The position numbers and the translations under genes were made by a program. The notes under the pieces were generated by a model. The model ran no database searches, was not told where the DNA came from, and saw nothing but the letters and a program-made list of their open reading frames with translations. From positions 1 through 42,227 of the IMG/VR virus record IMGVR_UViG_3300017440_000003: a DNA stretch of 42,227 nt; one strand, given 5' to 3'. The DNA is from a virus. Position 1 is the stretch's first letter, and each line of letters starts with the position of its first letter. Positions 20,718 through 36,894 of this stretch are shown here, one piece after another.

Positions 20718-21718
20718 GCCCGCCCTCCATCGCCGGGCTGGGTGGCGAGGGCTGGCTTGATTTGCAACACGCCTTGCGCGGCACCTTCGACGAAGGCGAG
20801 GTGCATCTGCGCTGCCAACTTCTCACGAAAGCGGTCCATGATGCCCTGTGACGCATGCTTCTCGAAGACTGACGCGATAGCATTCATCATCCTCTGAACG
20901 CCGGCACTTTCCGCCCATTGGTCAGCAGCTTTGTCCAAGGCGTCAAAATCGCCAGCCTCGACAGCGGCGACCAACTGCGTGACCCGCTCCCCCGCCCCAT
21001 CGCTGCCGATCCCCACATCCGGTGGCGTCTGTGGGGGTGCCTTGGGGGTGAGGCGCTCGGACAGGCGAAGCGCGATCAGGTCAGTCCAGTGCCCCGGCGA
21101 GTAGAAAAGCACGGTCCCGCGCCCGTGCCTCATGTCGGACGGGTGAGAGCCTGCATCGTCGCAGATTTCGCCCCAAGCGTCCTGCATGACCTCGCCAAGC
21201 ATCGTCGCATCCACCATCTCGGCGGGTATCTCCCCCGGCCCCGCATCCGGTGGCGTCGGGGCGGCGGAGAGGGCAATCGACCCCATGTAAATCGTAGTTT
21301 CGCAGCCCGGCTTGGCTTCACGCTCGGCAATCGCGGCTGCGCTCGCTTCGTCGGCGGTCGGGAAGGTGCCGACCAGCCATTGACTGCCAGTGAGTTCGCT
21401 GTGCGTGTCGGCCATCACGCAATAGACCAGCGCGGTTGCCCCCGCCGGCACCGCCCCCGCCTGTTCGGGCGGTCGCTGGGTGAGGGCTGCGGCGGCCTCT
21501 CGCAGGATGCCCTTGTCGGAGGCCGTCAGCGGTCCACCATCCTCGCGGATGCGATCAAGCCGCCACGCCAACCCATTCCCCTCGCGCGGCTGGCTGGCCG
21601 CTTCGGTGAGGGCGAGCAGTCGCCGTGCTTCTGCGACATCGCTCGGTGCAAGGTAGCAGTGCTTCACACCAAGGCGGGCGATCAGCGCCTCCCTTACGGC
21701 GTCCGTTGCGGGGGTCAT
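20714..21718 (-). CDS. hypothetical protein (334 aa)
   Basis: Largest gene of the leftward operon, ATGA-coupled at both ends. No integrase, repressor or nuclease motif recognised. Confidence 0.65.
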   Translation of the reverse strand: MTPATDAVREALIARLGVKHCYLAPSDVAEARRLLALTEAASQPREGNGLAWRLDRIREDGGPLTASDKGILREAAAALTQRPPEQAGAVPAGATALVYCVMADTHSELTGSQWLVGTFPTADEASAAAIAEREAKPGCETTIYMGSIALSAAPTPPDAGPGEIPAEMVDATMLGEVMQDAWGEICDDAGSHPSDMRHGRGTVLFYSPGHWTDLIALRLSERLTPKAPPQTPPDVGIGSDGAGERVTQLVAAVEAGDFDALDKAADQWAESAGVQRMMNAIASVFEKHASQGIMDRFREKLAAQMHLAFVEGAAQGVLQIKPALATQPGDGGRA

Positions 21719-22059
21719 CGTGCCGACTCCTGTAGGGCGGCGGACAGCAGATAGTGCAGCTTGTGCTCCTCGCCCGGCTCTAATCCGTCGACCACGACCT
21801 TCATACGACCAGCGCCATTTGGACCACTCGCTAGTCCTGTCGCAGTCCGCAGCGCCTCCCGCATCCTCTCACCGCTATCTGGCGATGGGGTGCGGGTGTT
21901 CCAGGCGGTGATGGCAGCTTCTCGGGACAAGCTACTGTGCGGCCCGGCATCGCAGAACTTGCACGAAACCTTATGCAGCGAAGACATGTTCGCAAGCCGA
22001 TGTAGCATCGGCTCTTTTCCACAAAACGGGCACGGCAGTAGCGTCACATCATCCGACAT
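21715..22059 (-). CDS. lar: Lar-family restriction-alleviation-like protein
   Basis: ORF-track 21715..22143 trimmed to ATG 22059, preceded by GGGGAGG. LLPCPFCG...CKFC...EAAITAWNTR matches the Lar zinc-ribbon pattern. Carries a ~50-aa C-terminal extension. Confidence 0.65.
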   Translation of the reverse strand: MSDDVTLLPCPFCGKEPMLHRLANMSSLHKVSCKFCDAGPHSSLSREAAITAWNTRTPSPDSGERMREALRTATGLASGPNGAGRMKVVVDGLEPGEEHKLHYLLSAALQESAR

Positions 22060-22315
22060 TGCTCGCCTCCCCTTCCATGTCATTGGACTGACGGGCGGCG
22101 GATGCTGCCACGAGGGCATGGAGGCTTTGCGCCGTGGCGGCATATCGAGCGAAGGCAGCAGCAGTCTTCTCCGCGCCTGCCCATCTGCCGGTGCGGGCGG
22201 GGTCGCGCATGATGCCCGCGGACATCTCCAGACCGCGGTACAGCCTGTGTAGCTCGGGCAGCAAATTCTCCGGGACGGCTATTGTATGCTTGGCTACGGT
22301 ATGAGGCGCGGTCAT
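22049..22315 (-). CDS. hypothetical protein (88 aa)
   Basis: C-terminal part of ORF-track 22049..22714, starting at ATG 22315, which overlaps the upstream stop as ATGA. Confidence 0.5.
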   Translation of the reverse strand: MTAPHTVAKHTIAVPENLLPELHRLYRGLEMSAGIMRDPARTGRWAGAEKTAAAFARYAATAQSLHALVAASAARQSNDMEGEASNVG

Positions 22316-23181: not shown

Positions 23182-23221
23182 GTTTATATCTCCACGCCGC
23201 TTCGGTGCGGCTATGGGGTGG

Positions 23222-23250
23222 GTTATGAAGCGCAGTTTGTGCGCTGTCAA
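23222..23250 (-). promoter_or_regulatory. Putative leftward early promoter (TTGACA-N17-CATAAC)
   Basis: Read on the minus strand: -35 at 23250-23245, -10 at 23227-23222, about 45-nt leader to ATG 23181. Confidence 0.45.
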
Positions 23251-23255
23251 CGCAC
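23239..23255. promoter_or_regulatory. Operator-like palindrome O1 GTGCGC-TGTCA-ACGCAC
   Basis: 6-5-6 inverted repeat (5/6 arm match) overlapping the leftward -35 box. Confidence 0.55.
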
Positions 23256-23258
23256 ATT

Positions 23259-23275
23259 ATGCGCTTGACGCGCAT
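23259..23275. promoter_or_regulatory. Operator-like palindrome O2 ATGCGC-TTGAC-GCGCAT
   Basis: Perfect 6-5-6 inverted repeat overlapping the rightward -35 box. Its centre is 20 bp from the O1 centre. Confidence 0.6.
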
Positions 23276-23293
23276 ATTTTCCATAGCGCATAT
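23265..23293 (+). promoter_or_regulatory. Putative rightward early promoter (TTGACG-N17-GCATAT), likely leaderless transcript
   Basis: -35 at 23265-23270, -10-like at 23288-23293. ATG 23301 follows within ~8 nt and has no SD. Confidence 0.4.
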
Positions 23294-23300
23294 AGCCGCC

Positions 23301-28548: not shown

Positions 28549-29000
28549 CCGCACTGGACGACTTCGCAGACATGGACGATCCGCTCAACCCGGTGCCGCG
28601 CTTTCCGGTCGAACCTCCGGATGGCCGCAGGGATTGGAGCGAGATCGACCGGCAAGCCACGCTGCGCAGTTTAGTACATATCGGCGGGCCATCGATCCTG
28701 TTCTTTGCGATCCCGAACGCCGGTAAACGCAACCCGGCGCACGCGAAAAAGGAAGGCATCATGGCCGGGGTGTTCGACCTTCAGGCATGGTGGAACCGCG
28801 GCTTCTGTTCGCCGGAAATGAAAGGCTATGACAGCAACGGGCGACCCGGCAAGCTGTCCAAGCCGCAGATCGAATGGGGCAACCGAATGCACGACATGGG
28901 CTACCCGGTTGCTTGTTTCTTCGACCCTTACGCCGCCTATGACTGGATGCAGTCGGTTGGGGCGCCTCTACGCACTATCAATCATGGAGACCGTAAATGA
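28545..29000 (+). CDS. VRR-NUC domain nuclease
   Basis: AIPNAGKR..., GVFDL, PEMKG (D...ExK) and [10 protein letters not shown] follow the VRR-NUC pattern. Confidence 0.75.
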
Positions 29001-29254
29001 GCAACGTTGCTAACATCGCCGCCGAGGAACTGCGCTTGCTGATTGAGCGCGTCGAACGCCTTGAAAGCGAGAAGGCTGGGATTGCGGATGATATCAAGGA
29101 TGTGATGGGCGAGGCGAAGGGGCGGGGATATGATCCCAAGGCCATCCGCAAGATCGTCGCTATTCGCAAGAAACGCCAGGAAGCCGTGCAGGAGGAGCAG
29201 GCCATTCTGGAGACGTACCTGTCCGCGCTGGGGATGCAGTATGCGCTGCTGTGA
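28997..29254 (+). CDS. gapR: GapR-like nucleoid-associated protein (DUF2312)
   Basis: [48 protein letters not shown]...[14 protein letters not shown] aligns closely with the DUF2312/GapR consensus as I recall it. Confidence 0.9.
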
Positions 29255-29262
29255 GCGCTAGG

Positions 29263-29290
29263 TTGCATGTCGAGCAGGATTTGATATGAT
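29263..29290 (+). promoter_or_regulatory. Putative promoter TTGCAT-N16-TATGAT (with TGn extended -10)
   Basis: -35 at 29263-29268, -10 at 29285-29290. Paralogous to the element at 33742-33769. Confidence 0.6.
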
Positions 29291-29332
29291 GGGCGGGCGG
29301 GGAGTGTAGCAAGCACTCGCCCGCCCTATCAT
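29286..29332 (+). other. Long imperfect palindrome/hairpin overlapping the -10 box (module A)
   Basis: ATGAT-GGGCGGGCG-(GGG)-AGTG / loop TAGCAAG / CACT-CGCCCGCCC-(T)-ATCAT, about 18 bp paired. No U-tract. Confidence 0.7.
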
Positions 29333-29354
29333 CGGCTGAAACGGAGCCTCTGAC

Positions 29355-29552
29355 ATGAATAATTATACGCCCGAAAACCGCCTGCCGCAACCCTTTCGGG
29401 ATTCTGTGAAGGCGGTTTTGCTGCGCTGCGTCGAGATGGCAGATACGCCGTCCGATCAGAAATCAATGATCCTCACCATGTATGAAAGCGGTCTGCTATC
29501 ATGCGCTGAGACGTTCTCCCAGATCGCTACGCGCAAGCTGGAAAACGCATGA
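29355..29552 (+). CDS. hypothetical protein (65 aa)
   Basis: First ORF after promoter module A; ATGA-coupled to the primase-helicase gene. Confidence 0.55.
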   Translation: MNNYTPENRLPQPFRDSVKAVLLRCVEMADTPSDQKSMILTMYESGLLSCAETFSQIATRKLENA

Positions 29553-31819: not shown

Positions 31820-31925
31820 GTCCGGACATGTCCGGACAGGGTGTCCGGACAGGGTGTCCGCCAAAATCCGGACAGGCGGACAGGGGCGGACACCCCTCTA
31901 TAAGGGGTGTCCACCTGTCCGGGCC
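31820..31925. repeat. Iteron field: CGGACA core x6 direct plus 3-4 inverted copies (candidate replication origin)
   Basis: GTCCGGACA at 31820, 31830 and 31843. CGGACA(GG) at 31869, 31877 and 31887. TGTCCG at 31842, 31855 and 31916. Followed by an AT-rich stretch at 31930-31963. Confidence 0.6.
31888..31912 (+). terminator. Perfect 10-bp hairpin GGACACCCCT-CTATA-AGGGGTGTCC (terminator-like or origin hairpin)
   Basis: Seen directly in the sequence, inside the iteron field, 69 nt after the primase-helicase stop. No U-tract. Confidence 0.4.
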
Positions 31926-33687: not shown

Positions 33688-33728
33688 GGCACCGGGGAGC
33701 AAAATACCAGGATGCTCAACCCGGTGCC
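33688..33728 (+). terminator. Terminator-like hairpin GGCACCGGG-GAGC...GCTC-aa-CCCGGTGCC
   Basis: 9-bp and 4-bp stems, 8 nt after the last early/middle gene. No U-tract. Confidence 0.4.
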
Positions 33729-33741
33729 TGACGCAGGAGAT

Positions 33742-33769
33742 TTGCAAATTGCGGTGATTTCGGTATGAT
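33742..33769 (+). promoter_or_regulatory. Putative late promoter TTGCAA-N16-TATGAT
   Basis: -35 at 33742-33747, -10 at 33764-33769. Same architecture as 29263-29290. Sits at the head of the packaging/structural block. Confidence 0.6.
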
Positions 33770-33820
33770 GGCGGCGGAACGGAGGCTTCGTGGAAGTCGC
33801 CTCGACGTTCCGCCTATCAT
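33765..33820 (+). other. Long imperfect palindrome/hairpin overlapping the -10 box (module B)
   Basis: ATGAT-(GGC)-GGCGGAACG-GAGGC / loop TTCGTGGAAGTC / GCCTC-(GA)-CGTTCCGCC-(T)-ATCAT. Same outer arms as module A but a different inner stem. Confidence 0.7.
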
Positions 33821-33840
33821 CAGCGGGGAGATAGCCGCCA

Positions 33841-34374
33841 ATGACGTACGATTCCCTATCGCCAAATCAGCTATGGCGCAACGGCTGTGTTTATTGCGGA
33901 GTCAAATATGACCTGTGTAGGGATCATGTGATCCCAACGTCATACCTTCGCACAAAGCGCCGTTACGGCGGAGATTGGCTGGTTACAGCCTGCACAGAGT
34001 GCAACACATTGCTAGGGGCTAAGCTGCTATTCAATGTGCCGGAAAGGGCAGCATACCTGAAAATTGTGTTGGCGCGTAAATACTACAGGATTTTGCGGGT
34101 TCTGAATTGGGACGACGACGAACTTGAGGAATTAGGTGAAAACCTGTCGAGCGCGGTTCGGCTTGATCTCATGAAGCGCAAAGAGGTCGAGAGGCGGTTG
34201 TCGCATCTGGAATTGGTTGAGCGGCAACCAGTCGATTACCTATCCGGCTCCAGGCCGCTTATTCCTGCCGAACTGGACGAAACTAGGGAACATGTAGACC
34301 CTGAGTACGCATCATTTCTACGTCGCAAAGAGGTAGAGAAGATGGCGAAAAAGCGGTTTAAGAGGAAGGGATGA
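33841..34374 (+). CDS. HNH endonuclease
   Basis: CVYCG...CRDHVIP...ACTECN motif order. 177 aa. Visibly lower GC than the genome backbone. Confidence 0.75.
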   Translation: MTYDSLSPNQLWRNGCVYCGVKYDLCRDHVIPTSYLRTKRRYGGDWLVTACTECNTLLGAKLLFNVPERAAYLKIVLARKYYRILRVLNWDDDELEELGENLSSAVRLDLMKRKEVERRLSHLELVERQPVDYLSGSRPLIPAELDETREHVDPEYASFLRRKEVEKMAKKRFKRKG

Positions 34375-35303: not shown

Positions 35304-35596
35304 TGGACCAGGAGACGCCAAAACCAGCACAAGATAGCAAGGGCCGATTTGTATCGGGCAATATCGGCGGAGGTCGCCCTAAAGGAGCGCGTGCAAAACT
35401 GGGTGAGGCGTTCTTACAGGCAATGTTCGATGACTTCAACAAGCATGGCATTGCCGCCGTTGAACAGGTCCGCGAAGAAAAGCCCGACCAATACTTGAAG
35501 GTTATTGCATCGTTGATGCCCAAGGAAATAACCGGAGAGGAGGGCGGTCCCGTGCTTATTAGCAGGATTGAGTTGGTGCCTGTGTCGCCTCTATGA
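35303..35596 (+). CDS. terS: terminase small subunit (DUF5681-like)
   Basis: KGRFVSGNIGGGRPKGARAK motif. 97 aa. Immediately upstream of terL and ATGA-coupled to it. Confidence 0.65.
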   Translation: MDQETPKPAQDSKGRFVSGNIGGGRPKGARAKLGEAFLQAMFDDFNKHGIAAVEQVREEKPDQYLKVIASLMPKEITGEEGGPVLISRIELVPVSPL

Positions 35597-36894
35597 CAAC
35601 CGTGGGCATTGATATGCCAGCCAAGCTAGTTCCTGTATTCGACGGCATTGCCGACGTGCGGGGCGCTTGGGGTGGTCGCGGTAGTGGCAAGACACGTACT
35701 TTCGCCAAGATGACGGCTGTACGGGCATTGATGTGGTCGCAGGCCGGTCGTGAAGGCATCATCCTCTGTGGTCGTGTCTTCATGAACTCGCTGGCGGATT
35801 CTTCGTTGGAGGAAATCAAAGCCGCGATCCGTGAGACGGACTGGCTGCTGCCGTATTTCGATATTGGCGAGAAGTACATCCGCACTGCGGACGGGCGGGT
35901 CACGTACAGCTTCACCGGGCTTGATCGCAATATCGACAGTGTGAAGTCAAAGGCACGCATCCTGTTGTGTTGGGTCGATGAGGCCGAAACGGTCACTGAT
36001 GAGGCATGGACAAAGCTGATACCGACGTTGCGCGAGGAAGACTCGGAACTGTGGATCACGTGGAACCCTGAGCGCGAGGAAAGCGCTACCAACAAGCGGT
36101 TCTGGCAGGCGACCGGTGACCGGGTGAAGATCGTTGAACTGAATTTTCGTGACAACCCCTGGTTCCCCGATATCCTCGATCGCGTGCGCCTGCGGGACAA
36201 GGAAGAACGCCCCCACCTCTACGATCATATCTGGGAAGGCGATTTCATCCGCGTGGTCGAGGGCGCCTATTTCGCGCCGCACTTGACCAAAGCGCGGGAG
36301 GATGGCCGTATCGCCATGGTGGCGGAGGAACCCAATCTCATCGTGCGGCTGTTCGCGGACATCGGTGGCACGGGTGCCAAGGCGGATAACTTCGTGTTCT
36401 GGGCGGGCCAGTTCGTCGGCACGGAGATACGCTGGATCAATCATTATGAGCAGCAGGGGCAGCCGGTGTCGGCGCATCTGAATTGGATGCGGGCGCAGGG
36501 ATACAGTCCGGATCGCTGCAAGATATGGCTGCCGCACGACGGTGATACGCAGGACAAGGTATTCGACACGTCCTATCGCAAGGCGCTGGAGGATGCGGGC
36601 TACGGCGTGGAGGTGGTGGCGAACCAGGGCAAGGGCGCAGCAATGCAGCGGGTGGAGCGTGCCCGGCAGTTGTTTCCGCGGATGCGGTTCGACGAGACGA
36701 AGTGCGCCGCTGGCCTGAAGGCACTCGGCTGGTATCATGAGAAGCGCGATGATGACCGCGGTATCGGGCTGGGGCCGAACCATGACTGGTCCTCGCACAG
36801 CGCCGATGCGTTCGGGACCGGCTGCGTGGCCTATGAAGAACCACGGAAAGCTGTTACGCTCGATCTAAGCAAGTTGCGGCGTGGAGTTGTTTGA
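35593..36894 (+). CDS. terL: terminase large subunit (PBSX/Terminase_3-like)
   Basis: Walker A GGRGSGKT and Walker B LLCWVDEAE, with a C-terminal nuclease-like region. 433 aa. Followed by the portal gene. Confidence 0.85.
   Translation: MTTVGIDMPAKLVPVFDGIADVRGAWGGRGSGKTRTFAKMTAVRALMWSQAGREGIILCGRVFMNSLADSSLEEIKAAIRETDWLLPYFDIGEKYIRTADGRVTYSFTGLDRNIDSVKSKARILLCWVDEAETVTDEAWTKLIPTLREEDSELWITWNPEREESATNKRFWQATGDRVKIVELNFRDNPWFPDILDRVRLRDKEERPHLYDHIWEGDFIRVVEGAYFAPHLTKAREDGRIAMVAEEPNLIVRLFADIGGTGAKADNFVFWAGQFVGTEIRWINHYEQQGQPVSAHLNWMRAQGYSPDRCKIWLPHDGDTQDKVFDTSYRKALEDAGYGVEVVANQGKGAAMQRVERARQLFPRMRFDETKCAAGLKALGWYHEKRDDDRGIGLGPNHDWSSHSADAFGTGCVAYEEPRKAVTLDLSKLRRGVV

Follow-up and report, generated by a model that had tools for sequence, protein, structure and literature searches.

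The stretch of viral DNA analyzed here, which we refer to in its full length as the window, comprises positions 1 to 42,227 of IMG/VR record IMGVR_UViG_3300017440_000003. It contains two related 95-nucleotide (nt) cassettes, modules A and B, in each of which a promoter, a conserved hairpin, and a ribosome-binding mini-hairpin follow one another in fixed register on the plus strand. Each module is a compact expression cassette that occupies the entire intergenic gap at the head of an operon. Module A is located between the gene for GapR (28997 to 29254) and an open reading frame (ORF) of 65 amino acids (29355 to 29552, plus strand), which is followed by the gene for an AAA_25 primase/helicase. 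Genes for DNA methyltransferases and small ORFs lie upstream of module B, and behind it are the gene for an HNH endonuclease, which starts at 33841 on the plus strand, several small ORFs, the large terminase gene (35593 to 36894), and the gene for a SU10-type portal protein. Both modules thus sit at boundaries between operons, from GapR to the replication genes and from the methyltransferase and small-ORF region to the HNH, terminase, and portal genes, as a first-pass annotation of the window had proposed.

Module A opens with a −35 hexamer, TTGCAT (29263 to 29268), and after a spacer of 16 nt has an extended −10 element, TGA plus TATGAT (29282 to 29290; hexamer, 29285 to 29290). A TTGNNN is kept 16 to 18 nt before the −10 in orthologs whose spacers differ, and a TGn before TATGAT is found in module A and in relatives L120, L135, and L128 and is absent from module B. 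The predicted start of transcription is G29297, the seventh nucleotide past the hexamer. The full imperfect palindrome spans 47 nt (29286 to 29332), and its outer arms, ATGAT and ATCAT, overlap the −10. Within it, folding, a covariance model, and alignment define the hairpin in the register of the family (29295 to 29326). Its lower stem pairs 29295 to 29301 with 29320 to 29326, G29319 is bulged, the upper stem pairs GAGTG (29302 to 29306) with CACTC (29314 to 29318), and the 7-nt loop is TAGCAAG (29307 to 29313), which belongs to a derived apex that we call class 1. A single-stranded tail, TATCATC (29327 to 29333), with an ATCA core that is present in most orthologs, leads into the mini-hairpin (GGCT/AGCC; 29334 to 29348), where the Shine-Dalgarno sequence GGAG (29343 to 29346) is in the loop and the 3′ arm. 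The start codon of the 65-amino-acid ORF is at 29355.

Module B has the same order of parts. Its −35 hexamer is TTGCAA (33742 to 33747), its −10 is TATGAT (33764 to 33769) at the same 16-nt spacing, and the predicted start is G33776. The full palindrome, of 56 nt (33765 to 33820), again has the outer arms ATGAT and ATCAT, and the hairpin (33773 to 33814) carries the apex typical of the family. The lower stem pairs GGCGGAACG (33773 to 33781) with 33806 to 33814, the upper stem pairs GAGGC (33782 to 33786) with GCCTC (33799 to 33803), the 12-nt loop is TTCGTGGAAGTC (33787 to 33798), and GA (33804 to 33805) is bulged on the 3′ side. The tail, TATCATC (33815 to 33821), is followed by the mini-hairpin (GCGG/CCGC; 33823 to 33838), which holds GGAG (33827 to 33830) in its loop. 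With the outer arms included, the stem is about 18 bp long in A and about 19 to 20 bp in B, compared with a family core of 12 to 14 bp, and the outer arms are spaced 42 bp (A) and 51 bp (B) apart, center to center.

The two promoter-plus-palindrome units described in the first-pass annotation, TTGCAT-N16-TATGAT with its 47-nt palindrome and the second copy with TTGCAA-N16-TATGAT, can be read directly from the sequence. They share two flanks, TATGATGG and CCTATCATC; an exact match to either is present at modules A and B and nowhere else in the 42 kb, and the composite ATGATNG-N15-45-CNTATCAT was found twice, compared with 0.07 occurrences expected by chance. RNA folding gives −31.0 kcal/mol for A (z score, −4.1) and −33.9 kcal/mol for B (z score, −3.6), and the corresponding DNA folds have z scores of −5.4 and −3.8. 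Fold energy alone is unexceptional, because many coding-region hairpins score equally well in a genome of 61% GC, and ranking by energy, either in 90-nt windows or for single hairpins from RNALfold, does not single out A or B. A scan anchored on promoter plus hairpin under loose rules was swamped by noise. The significance of the modules rests on their shared flanks, homology, and covariation and not on energy.

Homology was assessed with a covariance model, R1, that was built from six class 2 orthologs of module A in other phages, with none from the window. R1 finds both window A (41.7 bits; E value, 3e-10) and window B (27.1 bits; E value, 1e-5), and with its filters off it finds nothing else significant in the window. 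The two modules are therefore true paralogs, which agrees with the first-pass annotation. About 20 relatives carry cassettes of this kind, and 23 distinct family members were aligned by fitting them to the R1 model. All 12 pairs of the main stem show two-sided compensatory changes, and 98.8 to 100% of the cells are paired; when the partners were slid by 1 to 3 columns, only 30 to 47% were paired, and none of 500 shuffles reached the observed values. An independent MAFFT alignment of six sequences has 8 of the 12 main-stem pairs changed on both sides, all of them paired. The lower stems are unrelated in sequence (GGGTGGGA, GGGTGAGG, TAACCAGA, GGTCCGTGGA, GGGGGTGAGA, TGGCCGGG, GGGTCAGGA, and GAGGGATGCG, as well as GGCGGAACG in B), and the proposal that structure had been kept through compensatory change thus holds for the main stem across the family. 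The mini-hairpin (helix 3) is 84% paired and also has two-sided changes. Among the main-stem cells, of which there are about 270, one is a G.U pair and the others are Watson-Crick pairs. The 5′ arm is nearly always G rich and the 3′ arm C rich, and neither this bias nor the scarcity of G.U is accounted for by the readings considered below.

The order of parts is kept in all orthologs of module A: a −35, an unconserved spacer of 16 to 17 nt, a −10, the G-rich arm, the loop, the C-rich arm, and a tail with the ATCA core, followed by the mini-hairpin GGCT-N7-AGCC holding GGAG, then CCGAC and ATG. The apex of the hairpin is near invariant in most members. Nineteen of the 23 members share a 3′ bulge (NA), a GAGC/GCTC helix, and a loop of 12 nt, TTCNTGNNNGTY, with seven invariant positions (U1, U2, and C3; U5 and G6; G10 and U11); the helix varies to GAGGC/GCCTC in B and to GAGAC/GTCTC in the L209b copy of relative L209. 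A closure of C3 with G10 over tandem U.U/U.Y is possible within the loop, and pairing of the loop with a downstream ACCG is not conserved. Window B has this typical apex, and window A has the derived class 1 form (GGAGTG, a 7-nt loop, and CACTC), with a loop that varies freely. In A, this loop is also exactly inverted relative to that of the closest relatives (TAGCAAG in the window and CTTGCTA in L120, L059, and L096), with the arms and the bulge unmoved. An inversion of this kind is what template switching or recombination within an inverted repeat would cause.

Relatives were reached by several routes. In INPHARED, no close relatives of the flanking regions or the modules were found, only distant gene matches, and the module is absent from cultured phages. 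The relatives of the primase/helicase are in two Sphingomonas genomes and in IMG/VR contigs, and those loci are without module A. The productive query was the 65-amino-acid ORF, with 16 homologs at 68 to 100% identity; their contigs almost always have GapR, a gap of about 100 nt, and the ORF, even where the replication genes differ. This ORF (MNNYTPENRLPQPFR...) matched neither a Pfam nor a PHROG family. It invariably comes directly after module A, whether the next genes encode a primase/helicase of 756 or 843 amino acids or separate DnaB-type proteins. Relatives of module B were reached via the HNH protein, which had 10 homologs in a collection of 5.8 billion proteins, with three useful contexts. 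Scanning IMG/VR for the apex motif and then applying the covariance model brought in L147, L209, L164, L180, L190, L207, L210, and the AT-rich L191. A scan of IMG/VR for the flanks (TATGATGG-N20-50-CCTATCATC) returned at least 118 stretches, of which L086 and L059/L096 are real and the others are chance matches, and a scan of metagenomes for the apex pattern returned at least 120 matches; among the matches listed, all were due to chance.

The family recurs at the same two kinds of position in other genomes. In the 42.1-kb contig L147, one copy precedes an ORF of the 65-amino-acid type, a primase, and a helicase, and a second copy, 4.4 kb downstream, precedes an HNH endonuclease, a small-terminase-like ORF, a 433-amino-acid terminase, and a portal protein. 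L209 has one copy before its HNH gene and another before the terminase block, and the copies in L190, L180, and L207 precede primase/helicase genes. Rfam 15 gave no match (E values up to 1) on either window module or in five loci that bear members. The family has not been described so far; it is of a broadly familiar kind and is without an Rfam counterpart.

The promoter half of the cassette is locked to the hairpin. In 18 of the 23 members, TTGNNN-N16-18-TANNNN ends 2 to 6 nt before the modeled stem, and in 14 of those 18 the distance is exactly 4 nt; two further members have TGGACA as the −35. The background frequency of the promoter pattern in the same loci is 1.2% per position, although the binomial value that follows from it is not a true probability because the member sequences are related. 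The −35 was not part of the covariance model, and the spacers are unconserved; among orthologs of module A, the −35 is TTGCAT, TTGCGA, TTGCAC, TTGACG, TTGCTA, TGGACA, or TTGACA. These observations are consistent with the promoter assignment of the first-pass annotation and indicate that a σ70-type promoter is the appropriate reading. With about 4 nt between the end of the −10 and the stem, a transcript begun at the usual distance would be base paired from the outset. In 17 of the 23 members, RNA that begins at the seventh nucleotide past the −10 has its very first nucleotide in a pair. From its predicted start, A would begin with GCGGGGAGUG... and form 11 bp (−18.0 kcal/mol), and B would begin with GGAACGGAGGC... 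and form 12 bp (−16.1 kcal/mol).

On this basis we tentatively favor, with somewhat less than even confidence, a reading of the modules as a promoter joined to a 5′-terminal leader hairpin, a cassette that also marks the operon boundary and is akin to the promoter-early stem-loops (PeSLs) of T4-type phages. A transcript from G29297 (A) or G33776 (B) would start inside the stem, already paired, and would carry a stem-loop of 10 to 12 bp at its extreme 5′ end, without a single-stranded leader. The 7-nt tail, the 4-bp mini-hairpin presenting the Shine-Dalgarno sequence in its loop, and the start codon would then follow. We infer that RNA is the active molecule. Most likely, the flush 5′ stem-loop would protect the newly made mRNA against decay of the RNase E/RppH type, which requires a free 5′ end, and the mini-hairpin would prepare the first gene for translation. 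Read-through transcripts of the upstream operon would contain the hairpin in full, including bases upstream of the start site, and in them it may mark the boundary as a 3′-end barrier, an attenuator, or a processing site. The cassette would in this way both insulate and restart expression, as PeSLs do. Among the three roles put forward in the first-pass annotation, a 5′ hairpin on the new transcript fits the geometry of the family best, processing of the RNase III type is possible, and a cruciform is the weakest.

Two known systems bear on the leader half of this reading. Flush 5′ stem-loops of the ompA type are known to protect mRNA when decay requires a free 5′ end; the hairpin stabilizer in the 5′ untranslated region of ompA was reportedly described by Emory, Bouvet, and Belasco in 1992. 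Like the modules, stabilizers of this type have their stem-loop at the extreme 5′ end, with essentially no unpaired leader. However, their function does not require a conserved loop, and they are not known to occur in phages as repeated modules that covary and are locked to a −10. In the T4 genes e and I-TevI, a late promoter is said to lie inside a hairpin that sequesters the ribosome-binding site (work attributed to McPheeters in 1986 and Gott in 1988). There, as in the modules, the promoter is nested in the 5′ arm of a hairpin, and RNAs from upstream and from the nested promoter fold differently, but the T4 hairpin hides the ribosome-binding site, whereas here the Shine-Dalgarno sequence is in the loop of a separate mini-hairpin and most of the main stem is in the module's own transcript.

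The closest parallel for the cassette as a whole is provided by the PeSLs, which have been described in T4-type phages phi1, RB49, PST, and nt-1 and consist of σ70 promoters with polyG/polyC stem-loops, often overlapping the −10, followed by a Shine-Dalgarno sequence and a start codon; both promoter activity and terminator activity have been measured for them (PMC2839356, PMC4122927). Like the modules, they combine a promoter, a G-rich/C-rich stem-loop, a Shine-Dalgarno sequence, and a start codon in one intergenic unit (PMC2839356), are located at boundaries between gene cassettes, and are tied to the insertion and deletion of small genes. The differences are also clear. PeSLs number about 50 per genome, in hyperplastic regions where they flank ORFans, whereas the window has two significant copies and one degenerate hairpin. 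The position of the PeSL stem-loop relative to the promoter is variable and the stem-loop is mostly outside the transcript of its own promoter, whereas here the position is fixed (4 nt in 14 of the 18 promoter-matched members) and most of the stem is transcribed. PeSL loops are not conserved, in contrast to the near-invariant apex of the modules, which also have a second mini-hairpin holding the Shine-Dalgarno sequence. The phages themselves, at about 42 kb and with relatives of their primase/helicase in Sphingomonas genomes, are unrelated to the T4 type.

Cassette behavior is supported by two loci at which small genes appear to have come or gone. In L142 (640 to 1394), a gene for an HNH/NUMOD4 homing endonuclease is inserted between GapR and the 65-amino-acid ORF, with a promoter-hairpin module on each side. 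The class 1-like module of this locus has TTGGCA-N16-TAAAGT followed by GACGGCGGGTG-cagcaaa-CACCCGCCGTC, and the upstream hairpin is the more terminator-like, since TTTGCG comes after it. In the window, a possible degenerate third copy, B0, is located at 33688 to 33728 on the plus strand, 13 nt upstream of the −35 of B. B0 has the architecture of the family with a different loop (GGCACCGGG-GAGC, a 13-nt loop, GCTC-AA-CCCGGTGCC; a 9-bp stem with an AA bulge), and its hairpin part scores 12.7 bits with R1 (E value, 0.06), with a DNA fold z score of −6.05. On its 3′ side are GCAggagattTGC, a mini-hairpin with a stranded Shine-Dalgarno sequence in its loop, and a three-codon mini-ORF, TTG-CGG-TGA, and then the −35 of B. 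B0 thus looks like a stranded module whose gene was deleted.

Several observations weigh against a promoter with a 5′ leader hairpin as the full explanation. The two outermost modeled pairs, and the outer arms in A and B, are upstream of the canonical start and yet are maintained, so mRNA from the module's own promoter does not alone explain them. The near-invariant apex would not be needed by a mere stabilizer or barrier and suggests a specific partner. No U-run follows the stem in A (tail, TATCATCGG) or in B (tail, TATCATCAG); with the hairpin present and the U-run absent, neither module is a canonical intrinsic terminator, and a terminator scan of the window lists neither. The single G.U pair in about 270 cells is unusual for a constraint acting purely on RNA, and the modules number 2 to 3 per genome, compared with about 50 for PeSLs.

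The outermost pairs would be explained if the hairpin acted solely on RNA that reads through from the upstream operon, with the promoter just restarting transcription. The hairpin would then be a terminator or attenuator without a U-run or a processing site of the RNase III type or for RNase E, as in the pairs of promoter and RNase III site of phage T7 (e.g., phi1.1-R1.1 and phi6.5-R6.5). Only RNA begun upstream contains the whole stem, outermost pairs and outer arms included; the stems are long (about 18 bp in A and about 19 to 20 bp in B) and imperfect, with a conserved asymmetric bulge; a single-stranded tail containing A and U lies between the two hairpins; and PeSL stem-loops have been measured as terminators (PMC2839356). 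This account nevertheless seems unlikely to us, as it leaves the fixed 4-nt register of −10 and stem and the conserved loop unexplained and is faced with the same lack of a U-run. Furthermore, the 12 to 14 bp of the family core are short for RNase III. A site of the R type has about two turns (∼20 bp) of coaxial duplex with an internal loop, to be set against about 18 bp in A and about 19 to 20 bp in B with the outer arms and 12 to 14 bp in the family core. The T7 pairs resemble the modules in being repeated homologous hairpins with an internal bulge, located at gene boundaries beside promoters, and they give read-through RNAs and locally started RNAs similar ends. They differ in that T7 uses promoters for its own RNA polymerase and in that the R sites have about 20 bp or more, are downstream of the start, and are not in register with a −10.

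A specific partner for the apex is what would be expected of a cis-acting leader RNA of the put/nut kind, in which the hairpin, with its apex and bulge, would fold on emerging from RNA polymerase and then bind the polymerase or a phage or host factor, so that transcription of the replication and late operons resists pausing and termination or gains temporal control. There are two paralogous elements per genome directly behind the promoters at operon heads, with structure from the predicted 5′ end, and the apex loop is near invariant, in contrast to the completely diverged lower stems. Behind B, the late operon is about 28 kb long, running from 33.8 kb across the end of the window to about 20 kb, and operons of this length commonly use processive antitermination. 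The late genes cross the window end, so the window appears to be a complete, circularly permuted genome of about 42 kb.

The known example is phage HK022, whose putL and putR RNAs are about 70 nt long with two stems each; putL begins at the third nucleotide of the PL transcript (PMC9378689). The modules share with them the presence in each genome of two paralogous structured RNAs behind operon-head promoters, with structure kept while sequence differs, as well as bulges and noncanonical features and, as predicted for the modules, a structure that begins at or near the 5′ end of the transcript. The put RNAs, however, have two long stems outside the ribosome-binding site, whereas the second stem here is only 4 bp and is occupied by the Shine-Dalgarno sequence, and their function has been shown with Escherichia coli RNA polymerase. 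No sequence resemblance to put or nut is apparent, in a comparison made without a put model or sequence, and no candidate binding protein was identified. In class 1 members, window A among them, the apex is of another form, which varies freely and can even be inverted; the apex is therefore dispensable for whatever A does. We accordingly regard a put/nut-like leader as improbable, if worth stating. Its most specific form, which we consider somewhat less probable again, is that the class 2 hairpin (a covarying stem, the 3′ bulge, the GAGC/GCUC helix, and the loop UUCNUGNNNGUY) would be a new put-like element of nascent RNA that folds right at the 5′ end and binds RNA polymerase or a small phage or host factor; in this group of phages, the replication operon and the ∼28-kb late operon would thereby be transcribed processively or under temporal gating.

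The first-pass annotation had also identified the outer arms of the palindrome with the −10 box itself. This is correct for the window sequence and does not hold as a core feature of the family. The −10 is TATGAT in just three distinct A sequences, and the others have TAGAAG, TAAAAG, TAATAA, TAGTGA, or TAAGGT. In L133, L136, L137, L139, and L142, the −10 is TAGAAG, TAAAAG, or TAATAA and the tail is GATCAAT, GTATCAG, or AATCAAT, which are unable to pair; in L128 the ATCAT of the tail has become ATCAC without compensation. A different pairing, of TATGTT with AAC, occurs in L207, a single case and too few to interpret. Covariation of the −10 with the tail was looked for in the orthologs and was not found. 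The search of relatives that the first-pass annotation had called for thus yields further copies and a main stem that covaries, with outer arms that are not conserved across the family. In the window, the −10 pairs with the CCTATCAT tail, a feature of a subgroup that is outside the core mechanism.

These results bear on the possibility that the element acts as DNA, as a palindrome extruded into a cruciform or hairpin, or bound by a regulator, that hides or exposes the −10 and so makes promoter activity dependent on supercoiling. The gene immediately upstream of A encodes GapR, a sensor of DNA topology, the window arms include the −10, and the DNA folds are significant (z scores of −5.4 and −3.8). 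The near-pure Watson-Crick pairing, with its one G.U, makes the stem equally good on both DNA strands, and the exact inversion of the loop in L120, L059, and L096 is an event at the level of DNA. However, the pairing of −10 and tail is absent from most of the family, so that cruciform gating of the −10 would be at most a peculiarity of a subgroup, and L140 and L147 keep the module without GapR upstream. Loops of 7 to 12 nt, bulges, and GC-rich centers, all of which are present here, disfavor cruciform extrusion, and these features together with the missing pairing in most relatives set the modules apart from cruciform-gated promoters, in which a promoter box would lie in a conserved, near-perfect palindrome with a short center. 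A dimeric operator is unlikely because the arm spacing differs between A (42 bp) and B (51 bp). An element acting as DNA is accordingly a very unlikely explanation.

For module A alone, there is also a promoter-like sequence on the opposite strand. TTGCGG-N17-TATAAT, from 29390 to 29362 on the minus strand, lies within codons 3 to 12 of the 65-amino-acid ORF and points into hairpin A, which would make the hairpin the terminator or stability element of an antisense RNA of about 75 nt that covers the start codon and the Shine-Dalgarno sequence, similar to lambda OOP or the copy-control RNAs of plasmids. A TAnnnT is located 17 nt from the −35 on the minus strand in 7 of 10 orthologs, and the −35 is TTGCGG in 8 of the 10 sequences, TTGTGG in L139, and TTGCGC in L142. 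The glutamine codon CAA, which gives the TTG of this −35, is kept in all 10 orthologs, compared with 18% CAA among the glutamine codons of the window, and relatives with the −10 TAAAAG read CUUUUA on the minus strand close after the stem. Against this, A/T-rich codons near start codons are common for other reasons, the minus-strand tail in the window, AUCAUAUCAAAUCC, is not a U-run, and the minus-strand match to R1 is insignificant (8.8 bits). Behind B, no comparable −10 is found, and an antisense promoter was rejected there because TAGGGA and TAGGCG, the two candidates, match a −10 poorly. We think it highly improbable that the hairpin serves such an RNA.

Other candidates were dropped. Hairpin promoters of the N4 type have a stem of 5 to 7 bp and a 3-nt loop and are used by a giant virion RNA polymerase; the stems here are 12 to 18 bp, the loops are 7 to 12 nt, and the largest ORF of the window encodes 848 amino acids. 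A DnaA box, an IHF core (WATCAA-N4-TTR), a σ54 −24/−12 element, boxA, and a T-loop, looked for by eye in the loop and tail, fit partially at best, as does an internal promoter with its −35 in the loop and its −10 in the tail.

Elsewhere in the window, the region between the stop codon of the primase/helicase and the SSB gene (31820 to 31922) contains dense direct and inverted copies of GTCCGGACA / TGTCCGG, an array that looks like an iteron-type origin of replication. An Rfam match to SorX on the minus strand of this array is below threshold (26.3 bits, compared with a gathering score of 46.6) and probably spurious. A divergent early control region is located at 23220 to 23295, between a leftward ORF of 104 amino acids and a rightward ORF of 90 amino acids, neither of whose proteins matches a known family. 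Its palindromes, TGTGCGCTGTCAACGCACA and TATGCGCTTGACGCGCATA, and a repeat, GCGCATATAG, overlap −35 boxes of the TTGAC type, and the palindromes are probably operators. A Lar-like restriction-alleviation protein is encoded at 21715 to 22143 on the minus strand. In the whole window, no integrase, repressor, Q-like or N-like protein, or RNA polymerase was recognized by Pfam or PHROGs.

In these uncultivated phages, neither a repressor, an integrase, nor a Q or N protein is recognizable, nor is a phage-encoded polymerase, and a conserved, promoter-locked element at exactly the two operon heads provides the best handle on how replication and late gene expression are timed. The element offers predicted start sites, stem pairs, and seven invariant loop positions for direct mutation. 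As a structured family of 23 distinct sequences in which every stem pair covaries and for which Rfam has no counterpart, it adds to the cis-regulatory elements of phages. If the apex does bind RNA polymerase or a factor, this would be a new system of antitermination or gating, and if the put-like proposal for the class 2 hairpin is true, that hairpin would represent a second, independent invention of RNA-mediated antitermination. In its working, the element appears closest to a promoter/stem-loop cassette that also has traits of a structured leader. Cassettes of this kind, known until now from T4-type phages, occur in an unrelated group of phages as well, in a different form.

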